A DNA stretch of 64,000 nt from Candidatus Parcubacteria bacterium (lineage in GTDB: Bacteria; Patescibacteriota; Minisyncoccia; Phycocordibacterales; JAKFXT01): the NCBI GenBank assembly GCA_021414235.1, contig JAIOOV010000004.1, forward strand, positions 342,157 to 406,156. The letters are read 5' to 3'. Of this stretch, positions 14,341 through 40,294 are shown piece after piece; positions within the stretch are counted from its first letter, which is position 1, and each line of letters starts with the position of its first letter. The notes under the pieces are model-generated. The model searched no databases, was not told the DNA's origin, and was given only the letters and a program-made list of their open reading frames with translations. The position numbers and the translations under genes are program-made.

Positions 14341-14408
14341 AAACGCAACTTAGTTGCATTTAGGACTATACCTCAGATGGGTATCTAATTGCAAATCTAT
14401 TGCGTTTA
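14341..14408. promoter_or_regulatory. Two inverted copies of an AAACGCAA-N5-TTGCAWTT palindromic element in the divergent ATPase/Fur promoter region
   Basis: 14341-14361 aaacgcaaCTTAGttgcattt contains a perfect 7-1-7 TGCAACT-T-AGTTGCA. 14388-14408 is its reverse-complement variant. The centres are about 46 bp apart. Confidence 0.45.
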
Positions 14409-14422
14409 GGTACTATGAAGAC

Positions 14423-14719
14423 ATGGAAGATTTCAAAAAGCTCCTGCATGAACGCGGCTTCAGGGCGACACCTGGTCGTCTAGAACTATTGCGCACTCTT
14501 TTTATTGCAAAGCACCCGTTGAACGTCGATGAGATAGGGAAGAGGCTGGATCTCAATGTGGTTACGCTCTACCGTGCCCTCAATGATCTGGCCGATGCTG
14601 GTATTCTTCTGCGAGGGAGCGGGGAAGGAGATGCAATTCACTTCTCATACCCCAAGAACCACCATCATCACATGATCTGCACGGATTGCGGATTTAAGAC
14701 TGGCTGCGTCACTTGTTAA
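14423..14719 (+). CDS. Fur-family metalloregulator (Fur/Zur/PerR type)
   Basis: Winged-helix ATPGRLELLRTLF..VTLYRALNDLADAGIL, then HHHHMICTDCG and a C-terminal GCVTC metal site. Start probably at MEDFKK (14423), not the ORF-track M at 14354. Confidence 0.8.
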   Translation: MEDFKKLLHERGFRATPGRLELLRTLFIAKHPLNVDEIGKRLDLNVVTLYRALNDLADAGILLRGSGEGDAIHFSYPKNHHHHMICTDCGFKTGCVTC

Positions 14720-16207: not shown

Positions 16208-16609
16208 TTCGCTGCGCGGGTCACTGACACGCGTCCGCTAGGGTTATAAGATTGACCTATGCGGGGATTCCTATTCTTTGGTTTGAAAGAAGCCCAGGCT
16301 TGCGTATTTGCGGGTTCCTTCTTCGTCCTCCTTTTCTTATCCAATCACATCCCGCTATTCGGCCTTCCTCGTTATGATTTCCTTTTCCTGGCAGCGCTTC
16401 TCCTCTACTCATAAGGTGGGTGGTTTCTCTTTGATATATTCGTAGCCGTAATAGCCGCCGATGCCGAGTAGGGCGAGGAGTATAAGCAGGATGGAGAGAG
16501 AGCGGGTGTTCATGCTGTGATGACGGCTATAGCCTTAGGTACTTTCATGCTCCTAGTATATAGCGGAGAGAAGCAGGGCATAGTACCATTCAGGGCATAA
16601 TTAAACGAT

Positions 16610-16894
16610 ATGGATACTATAGATATTCTTGAGCGAGAGGAAAAGCAAGATAAAGATAAGCTGTCGGAATTAGAGCGCGAGCTCGGCCGTCGCCAAGGGT
16701 ATCTGAAACGGGAACAGGATAAGATCGAGGATAAGGAAAGGGAGATGAAAAACCAGATCGACGTACTCAAGCGAGGTTTATCCAGACTAGAAGAGGATGT
16801 AAAAAAGACGGAACAAGATATCACCGTCGTAAAGAGTAGAATCAGTAATAGGGATGAAAAAATAAAGCAGATGGCCAGTCAGAAGAGGAAATAA
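16610..16894 (+). CDS. Small highly charged coiled-coil protein
   Basis: 94 aa, K/E/R-rich heptad pattern; stop overlaps the start of the next gene (ATGA). Lower-GC region. Confidence 0.5.
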   Translation: MDTIDILEREEKQDKDKLSELERELGRRQGYLKREQDKIEDKEREMKNQIDVLKRGLSRLEEDVKKTEQDITVVKSRISNRDEKIKQMASQKRK

Positions 16895-34828: not shown

Positions 34829-34902
34829 CGGGCCGTAGTATACCGGTAGTACGCGTCCATGGGGTGGATGTAGACCGGGTTCGATTCCCGGCGGCCCGAC
34901 CA
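34829..34902 (+). tRNA. tRNA-Pro (anticodon GGG), CCA encoded
   Basis: Acceptor CGGGCCG/CGGCCCG, T-arm CCGGG-TTCGATT-CCCGG, anticodon loop AUGGGGU (U33, G37), discriminator A, 3' CCA. Confidence 0.8.
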
Positions 34903-36685: not shown

Positions 36686-37141
36686 ATGCGCTATTGGCTG
36701 CTCAAGACCGAACCTGACGCCTTCTCCATAGACGATCTCAAGCGAGATGGCTTCACTTCCTGGGAGGGGGTGCGCAATTACCAGGCGCGTAATTTCCTAA
36801 GGGCAATGAAGAGCGGGGATAGGGTCCTCATCCACCACTCCAGCATCGCGGAGCCTGCGGTAGTGGGGGTAGGGGAGATACAGGGGGAAGCTACGCCTGA
36901 CCCCACCCAGTTTGATAAGAAAAGTCAGTATTTTGACGCAGCCTCTAAGAAGGATACCCCTCGCTGGACGACCCGGAAGGTGGTCTATAAAGGGATTTTC
37001 AAGGTCCCCGTGAAGCTTTCCTTCATAAAGCTCCATCCAGAGCTCAAAGGGATGCTCCTGGCCCAGCAGGGCAGCCGTTTATCGGTCCAACCAGTAGAAA
37101 AGAGCCATTTTGACCTCATTGTGAAGCTCGGGAAGGGGTAG
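36686..37141 (+). CDS. EVE-domain (PUA-like) protein
   Basis: MRYWLLKTEPDAFSIDDL..WEGVRNYQARNFLRAMKSGDRVLIHHS is the canonical EVE start; 151 aa. Confidence 0.8.
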   Translation: MRYWLLKTEPDAFSIDDLKRDGFTSWEGVRNYQARNFLRAMKSGDRVLIHHSSIAEPAVVGVGEIQGEATPDPTQFDKKSQYFDAASKKDTPRWTTRKVVYKGIFKVPVKLSFIKLHPELKGMLLAQQGSRLSVQPVEKSHFDLIVKLGKG

Positions 37142-37324
37142 GTTTAGGGCTCATTGTAGGCCTTGACAAGTAACTCCAGAAGTTATATAATAGACAGTAT
37201 CAGGGCCTAACCGGGCCTTGGTTTTAGTTTCAGCCATACCCCTTTTGGCGGCAGTCGCCATGGAGGGCACCGGTTACTAGCTAAACTTAGGCTTATACTT
37301 CCACTCATTATCGGACTCGCGCTC

Positions 37325-37822
37325 ATGTCCTCTGGGACCTCCACGCCGATTACCGTTCAGGGCAGCACCCAGGCCGTCTCTAATAAGACCCAGGTTGCGG
37401 CCGTTGCCACGGTACTCGAGACCAAGAAGGAAAATGCTCAGCGTTCTCTTGAAGCAGTCGTTCGCGAATACTTCAGCGACACGCCGATGCTAGCTGAGGT
37501 CGCACGTTGCGAAACTCGCTTCCGTCACTATGACCGCAAGGGCGAAGTCCTGCGCGGAGAGATCGACAACAACGACGTCGGCATCATGCAGGTCAACGAA
37601 CGCTACCATTTGAAGCGCGCAGAAAAGCACGGCTTCGATATCTACTCCTTGGAAGGGAACTTGGCCTACGCCAAATACCTCTACCTGGAGGAAGGTAGCG
37701 ATCCTTGGGCAAGTTCATCGCGTTGCTGGGGAGGTTATCGCGAGAATGCGACTAAGAGCGTCGCGATCAAGTCTTCGGCTTTCGCCAAGATCTCAGTCCC
37801 CCTCGTGGATCAAAATAATTAA
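37325..37822 (+). CDS. Lysozyme-like / lytic-transglycosylase (SLT, GH23)-like domain protein
   Basis: The ARCETRF..DVGIMQVNERYH..LAYAKYLY pattern resembles the SLT catalytic Glu, the G(L/I)MQ(I/V) motif and the YL motif. No signal peptide seen. The frame is open upstream to 37211 with no ATG. Confidence 0.45.
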   Translation: MSSGTSTPITVQGSTQAVSNKTQVAAVATVLETKKENAQRSLEAVVREYFSDTPMLAEVARCETRFRHYDRKGEVLRGEIDNNDVGIMQVNERYHLKRAEKHGFDIYSLEGNLAYAKYLYLEEGSDPWASSSRCWGGYRENATKSVAIKSSAFAKISVPLVDQNN

Positions 37823-37889
37823 GTCTCAGTTGAGTTTGGTAGAAAGAAATTAAAACCATCTCGACAGGGAAGAGAAAGATCTTCCAAAA

Positions 37890-37925
37890 CAGACCCGGAC
37901 GAAAGTCCGGGTCTGGTTGTTTACT
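37890..37925 (+). terminator. Rho-independent terminator
   Basis: cagacccggac-gaaa-gtccgggtctg followed by gttgtttact. Confidence 0.65.
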
Positions 37926-37949
37926 GGTTCCCAGGCTCGGGGAAGAGAT

Positions 37950-37991
37950 TAGGGATACGTCGCACAATATATCTTTTGCGACGTATCCCTA
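37950..37991. repeat. Perfect 14-15-bp inverted repeat with a 12-nt loop
   Basis: tagggatacgtcgca-caatatatcttt-tgcgacgtatcccta. No U-tract on either side. Confidence 0.6.
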
Positions 37992-38150
37992 TACAAACCT
38001 GGGTTTGGTTCCCGCTAAGCTCTGTAAGACTTCTTTCCTTGAATCGACTTTCGAGCAGATCTTTTGCTGTACCTTCTCCCTTAGTGATGATGACAAAAAA
38101 TTCCTCAGGTCTTCCCTCGACTCATGACATTAAAATTCTTCTTTCAACCA

Positions 38151-38200
38151 GTTTTAAAAATTCGACTTTCGATAGGGGACTCTCTCCCCTCTTTTTCTTT
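38151..38200. repeat. Copy 1 of a ~50-bp hairpin repeat (AAAAATT..TAGGGGACTCTCTCCCCT followed by a T-run)
   Basis: Core AGGGGA-CTCTC-TCCCCT at 38173-38189, identical in all three copies. Confidence 0.7.
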
Positions 38201-38210
38201 AATGAAGAAT

Positions 38211-38250
38211 GGCCGACACTGCATCGTCCCCTGTGGGTGCAGTGTCGGCC
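38211..38250. repeat. Perfect 13-bp inverted repeat 18 nt downstream of the 38268-38690 gene
   Basis: ggccgacactgca-tcgtcccctgtgg-tgcagtgtcggcc. Confidence 0.6.
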
Positions 38251-38267
38251 GGTTAGATAGCGACGCG

Positions 38268-38690
38268 TTAATCGCCAAGAGTCCAGAGAATGTGTACGAC
38301 GTTGCAGGAGGGCGTTGAGCACCGGAAAGCGATCAGGGGGTTGCTGAGAAGGCTCCGATTCTTGTACTCGTCCTTCGCCTTCTCAGCTTCGGCTTCCTGA
38401 TCATTCGCTGCGGCGCGCTGAAGCGGACTGTCGCAGACCCGGCAAACCGGGATCTTATCCCTGTCTACCCGCTCCAGCTGGCAATCGGCGCAATGATAGG
38501 TCACGTTCCAGCGCTCTTCGTGGTAGTTGTTGACCTGGTACGTGAAGGTCCATCGATGCGCGCACTCCTCTCGTACTTTTGCGAGTTTCTTCTGCGCGGC
38601 TACGATCTGGGTAGAAGCGTTGGTGATGATGGTGGTAGCCCGGTCGATCTCGTTGAGATAGCGCCTGGCCAGGGCTCGCGTGGTCGGCAT
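38268..38690 (-). CDS. Hypothetical protein with a Zn-ribbon-like CxxC..CxxC
   Basis: AAGGGAGAG RBS, 140 aa, YHCADCQ..(14 aa)..CRVCD, N-terminal helical region. Confidence 0.45.
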   Translation of the reverse strand: MPTTRALARRYLNEIDRATTIITNASTQIVAAQKKLAKVREECAHRWTFTYQVNNYHEERWNVTYHCADCQLERVDRDKIPVCRVCDSPLQRAAANDQEAEAEKAKDEYKNRSLLSNPLIAFRCSTPSCNVVHILWTLGD

Positions 38691-38763
38691 TCCAACTCTC
38701 CCTTAAGTAGTTCCGAGGAGATATTCCTGTATTTGGAGGTTTTTGTCTAGGGATTCCTAGGGT

Positions 38764-38812
38764 CTATCAAAAATTGGTTTTCAGTAGGGGACTCTCTCCC
38801 CTTTTTTTGTAT
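38764..38812. repeat. Copy 2 of the hairpin repeat
   Basis: Core AGGGGACTCTCTCCCCT at 38786-38802, followed by ttttttgtatg. Confidence 0.7.
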
Positions 38813-38835
38813 GAAAAGAAAAAGACCGCCGTCGG

Positions 38836-39594
38836 TTAGACATTGGTCTTAGTTTCTTGCCGACGAGCGATGACAGATTCTATCTTCTTAAGAAGCTCGG
38901 GTGTGCATTCGTCTCGACGGAAAAGAAGTCGCGGCTTGGGATTTTTTTCTGTGGCAAGCGGATTCCTGAACTGGCAGATTTCGATCCATTCAGTTTGGCT
39001 GAAAGCGATTCCGAAGTATCGGTTCCAGCCGCAATCTGGATAGAGACTGAAGTCGACCGCGTCTCGGTCGTGGTCTTGATAGGCGTTCCAGGCATGAAGC
39101 ATCGGCGCATTTAAGCTTGGACCAAAGACGAGGCCTTCAACATAGGTCATTGGCGGCCAGTGCTCGTTGACTGGCTCCTGACGTCTTTGATTATGAGCGT
39201 ACATCAAGATCGTCGCGTTGAAGAAACAGCATCGGGGCTTAGGCTCAATATGCGGGCGCCTCTTCCAGCGCAAGGGTGTATAGTCGGTCCCGTAACGCTG
39301 CAAGAAGTTGAGAGCCTCTGAATGCATGAAGTCCAGGTAGTTCATGTACCACTTAAGCCGCCAGGATGGAAGCATGTTTCGAGTAGCCGGATCGCCTCGC
39401 TGGAGATTCTGAAGAAATGGAACTATCTGATGCAGGCTCTCGTCGTGTCCATTCGGGAAGTACCTCGTGAACATGCTGTCGAGGTTTTTACGCCTTTCAG
39501 TGGCCTCTGGGGTGTTGCCATGAATTTCGTCCCAATAGGTTTTTGGGGGCGGGAGACAGAACTGAGTCTGTGTCCCAGTTGGCTGATTAGCCAT
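38836..39594 (-). CDS. Transglutaminase-like (papain-fold) domain protein
   Basis: Candidate Cys-His-Asp triad: PRCCFFNATILMYAH ... MLHAWNAY ... DHDRDAVDFS resembles the transglutaminase-core G.C..fA...HAW.EV..fDPT. 252 aa. Confidence 0.45.
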   Translation of the reverse strand: MANQPTGTQTQFCLPPPKTYWDEIHGNTPEATERRKNLDSMFTRYFPNGHDESLHQIVPFLQNLQRGDPATRNMLPSWRLKWYMNYLDFMHSEALNFLQRYGTDYTPLRWKRRPHIEPKPRCCFFNATILMYAHNQRRQEPVNEHWPPMTYVEGLVFGPSLNAPMLHAWNAYQDHDRDAVDFSLYPDCGWNRYFGIAFSQTEWIEICQFRNPLATEKNPKPRLLFRRDECTPELLKKIESVIARRQETKTNV

Positions 39595-39679
39595 GAGACT
39601 CTCCCTTCGGTTTAGTCAAATAACGCTTCAAGTGGGATATTCTCTAAAATTCTTCTTTTTGTCTAGAGACTCAAGATTT

Positions 39680-39730
39680 GTCCCAAAAATTTTGGCCCTC
39701 AATAGGGGACTCTCTCCCCTATTTTGTTTT
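39680..39730. repeat. Copy 3 of the hairpin repeat
   Basis: Core AGGGGACTCTCTCCCCT at 39704-39720, followed by attttgtttt. Confidence 0.7.
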
Positions 39731-39760
39731 GACTACTTAATACTCTTAAACTCTTTTAAT

Positions 39761-40294
39761 TTATTTTTGAATTTTTTCTAAAACAAGCCGCAATTCCTCC
39801 TCAATCGTCATCGAAGTTGTATCCAGCACCAGATCAAAGTTCTTAGGATCAAGGAAGTTATCGATGTCGTAGTATTTTTTATAGCGGTCAGTGATAGTCT
39901 CTTCGCGGTGTCTGGTGCGCTCACGAGCTGTTTCTATGGAAATGCCTTCACGATGCGCCACGCGGGTCAGACGAACCTCTTCGTCACAGGTCATATTGAC
40001 CTTGAGTGAGTGCGGGATAAATTTCCAAGCCAAGCGGCCATCAATCACGAAGTCTTGTTCGGTCTGACCTAGCTTCTCAGTACGTTCGTCGAGTGCCCGG
40101 TCGAATTGAGGGTCATGTCTGGCAGCCTCATCGATCTCATTTATAGTCATACCACGTTCTTCGGCCATCTGACGGAGCAAGTCCCCTGCAGAATATTTCT
40201 TCCAGCCGAGCTCGTTCTGGATCGCTTTACAGAGGGCGCTTTTGCCGACGCCCGCGAGCCCGGCGATGGTGATGATTCGCTTATTCGGGTTCAT
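39761..40294 (-). CDS. P-loop nucleoside-monophosphate kinase of the cytidylate-kinase family
   Basis: IITIAGLAGVGKS Walker A at the N-terminus, DGRL motif, 177 aa. Overlaps the upstream HD gene by 14 nt. Confidence 0.65.
   Translation of the reverse strand: MNPNKRIITIAGLAGVGKSALCKAIQNELGWKKYSAGDLLRQMAEERGMTINEIDEAARHDPQFDRALDERTEKLGQTEQDFVIDGRLAWKFIPHSLKVNMTCDEEVRLTRVAHREGISIETARERTRHREETITDRYKKYYDIDNFLDPKNFDLVLDTTSMTIEEELRLVLEKIQK

Follow-up and report, generated by a model that had tools for sequence, protein, structure and literature searches.

Inoviruses, whose range Roux et al. (2019; PMC6813254) widened to include the Candidate Phyla Radiation, are known to integrate through XerCD at dif, a route established for phages of Xanthomonas and Enterobacterales (PMC5666396, PMC7307601). 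For oral TM7, Shaiber et al. (2020; PMC7739484) describe nine prophage groups, and a term search of the text of that study returns no "attachment site". Here, we analyse a window of 64,000 nt from a Candidatus Parcubacteria bacterium (assembly GCA_021414235.1, contig JAIOOV010000004.1, positions 342,157–406,156) and, within it, the AT-rich stretch 37830–39760, which a preliminary description made from the sequence alone had read as an island of horizontally acquired genes. The stretch contains two small minus-strand genes, encoding a Zn-ribbon protein and a 252-aa protein, three copies of a short hairpin that we call M, and a palindrome with a 28-bp core. We conclude, with a probability of roughly 0.55, that the locus is a hotspot of gene gain and loss beside an unoccupied phage attachment site, at the strain-variable end of a conserved Parcubacteria locus.

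Three kinds of described system come close. With the core sites of tyrosine-recombinase phages, that is, dif and the integrative mobile elements exploiting Xer (IMEX; CTXphi, VGJphi, XacF1), the locus shares 11-bp inverted arms around a 6-bp centre, the same core on chromosome and phage, elements flanked by core repeats, integrase-less inoviruses and, in two phage contigs, a recombinase gene less than 0.5 kb away. It differs in that the window site does not lie at a GC-skew switch (GC, guanine plus cytosine), holds a fixed place downstream of the dcw cluster across two candidate-phyla classes and, in Parcubacteria, always comes with a conserved spacer of ~190 nt and hairpin M; its sequence is presumably unrelated to the proteobacterial and firmicute dif consensus. 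The Xer sites cer and psi, with their ~180-bp accessory sequences, and the pdif modules of Acinetobacter resemble the locus in having a core of ~30 bp, a one-sided segment of fixed length (~190 nt here) and gene modules alongside. In contrast to these, the context here is chromosomal and not that of plasmid multimers, no accessory-protein sites were identified, and the modules are bounded by M and not by the core. Integron arrays and clusters of attC sites lacking integron integrases (CALINs) are likewise made of small single-gene units separated by one hairpin-forming direct repeat, with unit numbers that vary among relatives. The locus departs from them in having no IntI gene or other recombinase gene nearby, at most three copies of a 17-nt repeat (45 nt with flanks) instead of a 55–140-nt attC, no R''/L''/L'/R' layout and a promoter-like leader in front of each cassette.

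The features of the locus are listed in Table 1. We picture a minus-strand dcw–gltX–M23–HD–kinase operon converging on a plus-strand block of DoxX, EVE and lysozyme-like genes, with three things in between. The first is the 28-bp attachment site, a target of phages that encode an integrase, of inoviruses that lack one and of at least one further element of candidate-phyla bacteria; the second, the ~190-nt conserved non-coding segment that ends in M; and the third, one to three small monocistronic cassettes, each with its own putative TAGACA-17-GAATAT promoter and a ribosome-binding site (RBS) of sequence AAGGGAGAG, neighbouring cassettes being separated by ~45-nt copies of AAAAATT-N10-M-T-run.

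Table 1. Features of the slot and its surroundings (window coordinates unless a contig is named; GC3, GC at third codon positions; z against 67 window genes)
Feature	Position	Strand	Properties
Lysozyme/SLT-like gene (SLT, soluble lytic transglycosylase)	37325–37822	+	165 aa as called; GC 0.548, GC3 0.663, GC3 z 0.0; backbone, outside the variable slot
Terminator hairpin between convergent units	37890–37915		Found by terminator scan; 11-bp stem, GAAA loop
Palindrome	37950–37991		21-nt arms, 90% complementary
Palindrome core	37957–37984		28 bp, 11-6-11; ACGTCGCACAA-TATATC-TTTTGCGACGT; arms match 10/11 as inverted repeat
Conserved non-coding segment	37992–38173		Between palindrome and M
M copy 3	38174–38190	+	Exact; T-run follows; within 45-nt direct repeat (family D1); appearance of a plus-strand terminator
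Hairpin with perfect 13-bp stem	38211–38250	-	Inverted repeat I16; just 3' of the Zn-ribbon stop codon
Zn-ribbon protein gene	38268–38690	-	140 aa; variably present cassette; weak Zn_ribbon_6 match (E 0.034); GC 0.579, GC3 0.73, GC3 z +1.0
Zn-ribbon gene leader	38697–38749	-	Putative -35 TAGACA 38744–38749, 17-nt spacer, putative -10 GAATAT 38721–38726, RBS AAGGGAGAG 38697–38705
M copy 2	38786–38802	+	Exact; its ortholog in L001 is the second M there, and the flanks are identical
252-aa Cys-His-Asp protein gene	38836–39594	-	Undescribed family, papain/transglutaminase-like core (predicted); GC 0.514, GC3 0.593, GC3 z -1.1
252-aa gene leader	39599–39665	-	Putative -35 TAGACA 39660–39665, 17-nt spacer, putative -10 GAATAT 39637–39642, RBS AAGGGAGAG 39599–39607
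M copy 1	39704–39720	+	Exact; between kinase stop codon and putative 252-aa promoter; stem extends to 9 bp, then T-run
Cytidylate-kinase-like gene	39761–40294	-	Cytidylate_kin2, E 8e-22; last backbone gene of the operon, slot boundary; GC 0.494, GC3 0.562, GC3 z -1.5, GC z -2.2
Tyrosine recombinase gene, L169	3823–4755		Xer-sized, adjoins palindrome
Tyrosine recombinase gene, L189	10665–11597		Xer-sized, adjoins palindrome

The palindrome and the elements inserted at it

The palindrome is present in a single copy in the window, and no second copy of its core appears even if 6 mismatches in 19 nt are allowed. Seven Parcubacteria loci carry it. The sequence is identical in L001, L195 and L196 and nearly so in L132 and L062. 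Of these loci, L132 is visibly rich in AT, and identity of the lysozyme-like protein there is no more than 49%.

The same sequence is found on mobile elements. An 18-mer of the palindrome, GTCGCACAATATATCTTT, is contained in 27 contigs of IMG/VR, and in L169 the match covers 28 of 28 nt. Most of these viral contigs continue into the right arm, (A/G)CGAC, and a few have a degenerate right arm. They are mostly 4–6 kb long and inovirus-like, encoding Zot and a G2P-type Rep but no integrase, and among them the sequences that flank the site on the left and on the right are combined in different ways. L186 contains a Zot/Rep element of 5.4 kb with a copy of the site at either end, flanked by murG and, on the opposite side, by a DUF3048 gene. 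Exact-sequence look-up assigns the host to oral Saccharibacteria (TM7, Ca. Saccharimonas, Ca. Nanogingivalis), and the orientation of the site relative to murG is the same as in the window.

In the L002/L003 genome, the site is split by another element, which carries AbrB-like, ParB-like and capsid-like genes. Both junctions are defined: attL, in L197/L198, reads from the left host flank through GTCGCACAATATATC into the element, and attR, in L002/L003, reads from the element through GTCGCACAATATATC and TTTTCCGAC into the right host flank. Finally, two larger viral contigs, L169 and L189, encode a 310-aa tyrosine recombinase with Phage_integrase and Phage_int_SAM_4 domains at a distance of 420–460 nt from the site. 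With 83% identity between their recombinases, the two phages are related and represent effectively one lineage.

The palindrome therefore combines what is looked for in a bacterial attachment site (attB): inverted arms around a 6-bp centre, a core that is present on mobile elements and in the copies that flank them, and a linked tyrosine recombinase. Judged by sequence, we regard it as established that the palindrome is an Xer-like tyrosine-recombinase attachment site used by several types of element, and that it is unoccupied in the window. Which recombinase acts on the host site is something that we infer. The attachment site marks the neighbourhood as a recombination hotspot.

Searches for the site in annotated phage and plasmid collections gave chance-level matches only, and its sequence was not found in a searchable corpus of 8 million papers.

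We rejected the idea that the stretch is itself an element integrated at the palindrome, given the lack of a second core copy described above.

A possible alternative identifies the palindrome with the dif site of the chromosome; the inserted elements would then be IMEX that use the host XerCD, and the slot would be ordinary terminus plasticity. The 11-6-11 layout with 10/11 arm symmetry and the single copy in the window agree with this, and so do the convergence of the genes on the site and the conservation of its sequence, position and orientation downstream of murG from Parcubacteria to Saccharibacteria. Integrase-less inoviruses, such as the Zot/Rep elements integrated at the site, are the classic IMEX type. 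Nevertheless, GC skew is positive (+0.04 to +0.10) on both sides of the site, over 38 kb on its left and 26 kb on its right, and cumulative skew rises monotonically over the 64 kb, with no inflection. Since the skew of the coding strand changes sign between the plus-strand genes on the left and the minus-strand genes on the right, the GC skew is strand-specific and not caused by transcription. Furthermore, some of the phages bring their own recombinase for the site, no xer gene was seen in the window, and we take the arms to bear no resemblance to the conserved XerD arm TTATGTTAAAT. We therefore consider dif identity unlikely and do not file the site as dif, as no skew switch marks it as the replication terminus; it still works like an Xer-type core site.

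Several details of the inserted elements deserve mention. In L169, a family-6 glycoside hydrolase is encoded on the other side of the site. At attL in L197 (1747–1823), an inverted copy of the left arm (TATTGTGCGAC) lies 66 nt from the core and gives rise to an extended imperfect hairpin (-42 kcal/mol under RNA parameters), after which the AbrB-like and ParB-like genes follow; this fold recalls the folded single-stranded attP of CTXphi. The L197 junction was not found in IMG/VR. The element in L002 (11449–13206) encodes a 280-aa protein whose two halves resemble each other, possibly a capsid protein of the double jelly-roll type, together with proteins of 140 and 98 aa. None of the three has a PHROGs match or relatives in IMG/VR.

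The variable slot and its base composition

The loci of relatives were fetched by means of the 252-aa and lysozyme-like proteins. In every relative fetched, the backbone murG–gltX–M23–(GrpB)–HD–kinase converges on the lysozyme-like, EVE and DoxX genes, but the slot between the kinase and lysozyme-like genes differs in content. In the window, it holds the 252-aa gene and the Zn-ribbon gene. L001, whose lysozyme-like protein is 89% identical, has a 168-aa gene and an ortholog of the 252-aa gene but no Zn-ribbon gene; L002/L003 has an AAA_16 ATPase gene and a 247-aa ortholog; L195 has a 203-aa gene and a Trypsin_2 gene without the 252-aa gene; L196 has a homolog of the Zn-ribbon gene (52.6% identity) in the same place, where its contig ends; and L012 has a different small open reading frame (ORF) after the kinase gene. 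The 252-aa gene is thus found at the same locus in three relatives, with 82% (L001), 63% (L002/L003) and 61% identity, and is absent from L195, whereas the Zn-ribbon gene is found at the same position in L196 and is absent from L001, L002 and L195.

The window and its closest relative, L001, are collinear apart from the segment that runs from just right of M copy 2 to M copy 3. The segment missing from L001 is exactly the Zn-ribbon cassette, which is thus bounded by the repeat unit. The most economical history would be that M units recombined in the lineages of L001 and L002 and the cassette was lost, and gain by the reverse reaction is equally compatible with the data. M is repeated in direct orientation and could for this reason serve as a substrate for the loss and duplication of cassettes. 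The other variable genes (168 aa, AAA_16 and Trypsin_2) are not bounded by M. PADLOC gave no defence-system match for the 252-aa or the Zn-ribbon protein and only weak matches to variable genes of the other genomes. We conclude that the slot is variable and that both window genes are old residents with patchy retention, not recent arrivals.

This conclusion has to be set against the reading of the stretch as a recently acquired, horizontally transferred island of ~1.9 kb whose three accessory genes betray a foreign origin by their low GC. To evaluate composition, we scored GC, GC3 and codon-usage log-likelihood for 70-odd called ORFs against the window's own genes. The dip that had been noticed is real: GC is 0.495 in 37830–39760 and 0.555 window-wide, with the lowest 400-nt values at 37800–38199 (0.43) and 39600–39999 (0.41). 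Its source, however, is not the genes. Non-coding DNA makes up 756 of the 1931 nt of the stretch (39%), compared with 8.5% of the window, and the spacers within the stretch have a GC of 0.36–0.46. The low GC thus reflects AT-rich spacers between genes of ordinary codon usage (Table 1), and composition does not serve as evidence for a recent horizontal acquisition. For all three genes, GC3 and codon usage lie inside the range of the window, with the Zn-ribbon gene even above the mean, and the backbone kinase gene is lower than all three in both GC and GC3.

The content of the island is also different from what had been proposed. Only two minus-strand genes lie inside the stretch, and not three; the third gene named, which encodes the lysozyme-like protein, is on the plus strand, outside the range, and belongs to the backbone. 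No integrase was found among the ORFs scanned, no tRNA gene flanks the stretch (the nearest, for tRNA-Pro, is at 34829), and there are no attachment-site repeats at the borders, the sole direct repeats being the M units. The placement of the stretch at the 3' end of the long minus-strand scpB–dac–mraY–ftsW–murG–gltX–M23–HD–kinase run was correct. In favour of an island, the slot content does differ between relatives, the Zn-ribbon gene has very few homologs, and the 252-aa fold has remote relatives in tailed phages. Of the proposal of horizontal cargo, the variable content of the slot thus survives, but neither atypical composition and codon usage nor the lysozyme-like gene as cargo does. The preliminary description had itself named uniform codon usage and conservation at the locus as grounds for abandoning the proposal, and this is largely what we observe, since synteny extends to three relatives for the 252-aa gene and to one for the Zn-ribbon gene. 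We consider a recent island very unlikely. On balance, we favour a strain-variable, spacer-rich slot of two small genes, each apparently with its own promoter, over a compositionally foreign island. The case is a cautionary one for sequence scans, as the GC dip stems from spacer density and not from foreign genes.

The most deviant composition in the window belongs to ORFs 14354–14719 and 16510–16824 (GC 0.473 and 0.441; GC z -2.9 and -4.0; codon-usage z -2.3 and -2.5, respectively), which are far more atypical than anything in the flagged stretch.

Hairpin M, the cassette leaders and the conserved spacer

M (AGGGGACTCTCTCCCCT) is a 17-nt perfect hairpin of 6-5-6 layout and forms the core of a ~45-nt direct repeat, AAAAATT-N10-M-T-run (family D1). 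Besides the three exact copies of Table 1, there is no further copy in the 64 kb, in which 0.01 would be expected by chance. L001 has two exact copies, one on either side of the 252-aa ortholog, and L002 has two variant copies. On the gene strand, the variants of L002 and L011 read AGGGAAG(T/A)GA(G/A)TCCCCT. A metagenome scan for M gave 120 single chance-level matches; only those in L132 and L062 are real, since both loci also carry the palindrome. M is absent from the site-bearing viral contigs. Readings of M as a clustered regularly interspaced short palindromic repeat (CRISPR), a tandem repeat or a miniature inverted-repeat transposable element (MITE) were rejected, because genes lie within its 612- and 918-nt spacings and terminal inverted repeats are lacking.

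Strong hairpins at the gene borders, as described earlier, are thus confirmed, and one of them, directly behind the Zn-ribbon gene (38211–38250), is probably the terminator of that gene. M itself has the appearance of an intrinsic terminator of the plus strand, placed 3' of every minus-strand unit. Read in the plus sense of the window, the 8 nt after the hairpin contain at least five T in 8 of 13 M copies from eight loci and at least four T in 11 of 13; those of L195 and L011 fail. The variants keep the stem as G.U pairs on the plus sense, where the gene sense has A.C. M would mainly act by stopping convergent transcription and thereby shielding the minus-strand cassettes.

The two cassettes of the window have leaders of the same order: M, CTAGACAAAAA (which includes the -35 TAGACA), a 17-nt spacer, GAATAT and the RBS AAGGGAGAG. 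The 252-aa leader is conserved in L001, L002 and L011, and the Zn-ribbon leader aligns with the upstream regions of the 252-aa orthologs (alignment A9). TAGACA-17-GAATAT is the likely promoter of each cassette.

Could M instead be a site of site-specific recombination, so that the locus would be an integron-like platform whose attachment region comprises palindrome, spacer and M, and on which a recombinase encoded elsewhere captures and excises circular promoter–gene–M cassettes? M is conserved exactly, including its loop, and is specific to this locus; its direct repeats lie at every cassette junction, and the border of the Zn-ribbon cassette coincides with the M-containing 45-nt unit. The spacing between palindrome and M is constant in seven loci, which is reminiscent of cer and psi, Xer core sites that have accessory sequences alongside, and L132 contains a diverged tandem copy of half-palindrome, spacer and M. 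Set against this, no recombinase is encoded nearby, and a 17-nt, 6-5-6 hairpin has neither the structure or length of attC nor the 11-6-11 layout of a core site. Moreover, the cassettes appear to carry their own promoters, the 168-aa, AAA_16 and Trypsin_2 genes are not M-bounded, and the viral contigs lack M. We regard this alternative as improbable.

The segment between the palindrome and M has a nearly constant length of ~180–206 nt (203–230 nt from the start of the palindrome to the start of M in the window, L001, L002, L195, L196, L132 and L062), and its conserved blocks include TCTTCCCTC, AAAATT and TAAAAATT. The half next to M is paralogous to the cassette leader: it has in common with the 252-aa leader the 14-mer TAAAATTCTTCTTT and an RBS-like box (family D17). 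RNAalifold, applied to five to seven homologous spacers on both strands, detected no conserved structure beyond the palindrome stem and M. In an Rfam search of the window and the region, only two tRNAs reach the gathering score, and nothing in 37100–39800 has an E value below 0.78. A small conserved ORF in the spacer was rejected: on inspection, the candidates of L001, L195 and the window (the last 35 aa long, with a TTG start) share neither reading frame nor start codon.

The spacer may be read in three ways: as a CU-rich small RNA of the plus strand, as sequences accessory to the recombination site or as a cassette leader that is "empty". According to the first, the ~190-nt segment would be an M-terminated plus-strand RNA whose CU-rich anti-Shine–Dalgarno boxes regulate the cassettes, with whose RBS AAGGGAGAG they pair. 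The length and the CU-rich boxes (TCTTCCCTC, CTTCTCCCTTAG) are conserved in seven loci, the boxes are complementary to the ribosome-binding sites of the cassettes, and M behaves as a plus-strand terminator would, with G.U-compatible variants. We nevertheless think a small RNA unlikely. The segment has no conserved secondary structure beyond M, no convincing plus-strand promoter and no Rfam match; by eye, the extension of the palindrome stem in L001 pairs on the minus strand only; and the boxes can equally be read as decayed copies of the minus-strand RBS of a cassette leader (D17).

In two loci, the right arm of the palindrome is repeated together with its flank. In L132 (2115–2130 and 2556–2571), the additional copy is 94% identical and lies 441 nt from the first, ahead of the second M; in L195 (1726–1744 and 1937–1955), it is 79% identical and directly follows M. 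These repeats suggest an old tandem duplication of a unit of half-site, spacer and M.

A number of points weigh against our reading of the locus as a hotspot beside an attachment site, with M as a terminator. The two slot genes are not bounded by copies of the attachment site, which thus explains the plasticity of the neighbourhood only indirectly and does not explain how the genes arrived. The preliminary description held that the mechanism of acquisition is not evident; the edge of the region does carry a conserved attachment site for a tyrosine recombinase, but this does not extend to borders of the two genes themselves. No recombinase is encoded in the window, and neither slot gene has homologs in the site-bearing viral contigs. 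Our explanation assigns no function to the ~190-nt conserved spacer. As for M, 2 of the 13 copies have fewer than four T in the next 8 nt, and 3 carry the T-run on the opposite side. The loop is as conserved as the stem across visibly different base compositions, which exceeds the needs of a terminator and suggests specific recognition. The distance from M to the promoter varies from 7 to 38 nt, so M is no operator that acts at a fixed distance. The promoter and terminator calls are all sequence-based.

The palindrome, the fixed ~190-nt spacer and M may together constitute an undescribed chromosomal recombination platform, with the palindrome as the entry point of phages (inoviruses as well as those with an integrase) and M as a second site, recognised specifically, where promoter-bearing single-gene cassettes are captured, duplicated and lost. 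The palindrome is seen in Parcubacteria and Saccharibacteria, and the spacer and M only in Parcubacteria loci. We offer this platform as a speculative idea that is probably wrong.

Proteins of the slot and its flanks, and uses of the site

The three guesses of the preliminary description about protein type hold qualitatively: the Zn-ribbon protein has CxxC pairs, the 252-aa protein has Cys, His and Asp in a papain/transglutaminase-like topology, and the lysozyme-like protein has SLT-like motifs.

The 252-aa protein has no Pfam, PHROGs, NCBIfam-type or PADLOC match. A word-indexed search found 8 relatives, and a full profile search extends the family to at least 245 clusters at 50% identity, 117 of them at E<=1e-30 and nearly all 215–250 aa long. 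The family has no relatives in the IMG/VR search, and distant members are found in unrelated contexts. In an alignment of 57 sequences, Gly102, Cys123, Gly154, His167, Trp169 and Gly195 are invariant, and Asn126, Tyr151-Val152-Glu153, Asn170 and Asp181 are at least 90% conserved. In the AlphaFold model (predicted local distance difference test score, pLDDT, 87; predicted template-modelling score 0.86), Cys123 is the first residue of a helix, His167 lies in a strand and Asp181 lies just past the next strand, that is, the arrangement of papain- and transglutaminase-like enzymes, with Cys at a helix N-terminus and conserved His and Asp on the following strands. Foldseek searches against the PDB and profile searches against PDB sequences and Pfam returned nothing for the family, whereas the model is matched by two uncharacterised proteins of uncultured tailed phages (E 3.5e-6 and 1.3e-5). 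No hydrophobic, signal-like segment is visible by eye at the N-terminus. Based on the model, the protein is a member of an undescribed Cys-His-Asp family with a weak papain/transglutaminase-like fold and is probably a cytoplasmic enzyme, for which peptidase, amidase or transferase activity may be considered. The closest named systems are the transglutaminase-like and papain-like cysteine peptidases (LapG/BTLCP, TglA, PPPDE, PeiW/PeiR). An uncharacterised family of at least 245 clusters is thereby defined.

In the Zn-ribbon protein, the pairs Cys67xxCys70 and Cys83xxCys86 as well as Cys43/His45 and Cys124/Cys129 are kept in a homolog of 46% identity. The AlphaFold2 model (pLDDT 75) has a long N-terminal helix followed by beta strands. 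Only two homologs were found, P0010, on a short contig in an unrelated context, and the syntenic protein of L196.

The lysozyme-like gene is conserved Patescibacteria backbone. It adjoins the EVE gene in L001, L195, L196 and L197, and its family comprises at least 177 homologous clusters, of which those with a named source are all from Patescibacteria. The protein has no Pfam or PDB sequence match (no hidden Markov model or PDB match at E<=0.1). Inspection by eye of the protein and six homologs reveals the motifs CE(S/T), D.G(V/I)MQ(I/V)NE.YH and EGNLAYAKYLY. These are reminiscent of SLT/family-1 lytic transglycosylases, with their ES/GLMQ/AYNxG-type triad, and of C-type lysozyme: in the 165-aa protein, CE(S/T), which contains a candidate catalytic Glu, precedes G(V/I)MQ(I/V)N, and a motif of the NLAYAKYL type comes third. 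The difference is that the protein falls below the detection threshold of Pfam SLT, and its family is apparently restricted to Patescibacteria and is backbone, not cargo.

Upstream of this gene, at 37163–37222, a perfect sigma-70 consensus promoter (TTGACA-17-TATAAT, 12/12) is predicted, followed 8 nt on by a 10-bp hairpin and a leader of ~100 nt. The arrangement is conserved in L001, a similar promoter and hairpin occur in L132, and there is no Rfam match. Immediately 5' of the called ATG, 37280–37324 encodes in frame the hydrophobic stretch AKLRLILPLIIGLAL, which differs from L001 only by synonymous or conservative changes; the homologs are also hydrophobic at the N-terminus. The true start is probably upstream of the called ATG, although there is no in-frame ATG, GTG or TTG. 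Downstream of the gene, the terminator hairpin between the convergent units is present in L001, L195, L196 and L197 with an identical loop and differing stem sequences.

At the other boundary, the kinase gene occupies the same position in L001, L002, L195 and L012. Among species-representative genomes, one Paceibacterota genome has the protein at 85% identity, and the other nearest relatives are mostly DPANN, Methanosarcinales and Thermoplasmata archaea at no more than 47%. The kinase gene, which has the lowest GC of the neighbourhood, thus looks more "foreign" than the flagged genes. A synteny scan with the kinase found only one close genome, L012 (DASPJT010000053.1), whose contig stops 181 nt past the kinase gene. 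The break falls exactly at the start of the variable slot, consistent with strain heterogeneity confounding the assembly.

Patescibacteria have tiny genomes, in which prophages and mobile DNA were for a long time believed to be scarce. If the speculative platform of palindrome, spacer and M were real, it would be an integron-like system without a linked integrase in bacteria of minimal genome. The site itself, of 24–28 bp, is conserved from Parcubacteria of soil and groundwater to Saccharibacteria of the human mouth and is used by three unrelated kinds of element. It thus provides a handle for finding prophages and host links in uncultured lineages and for defining a hotspot of plasticity, and possibly for building integrative genetic tools for the few cultivable members.

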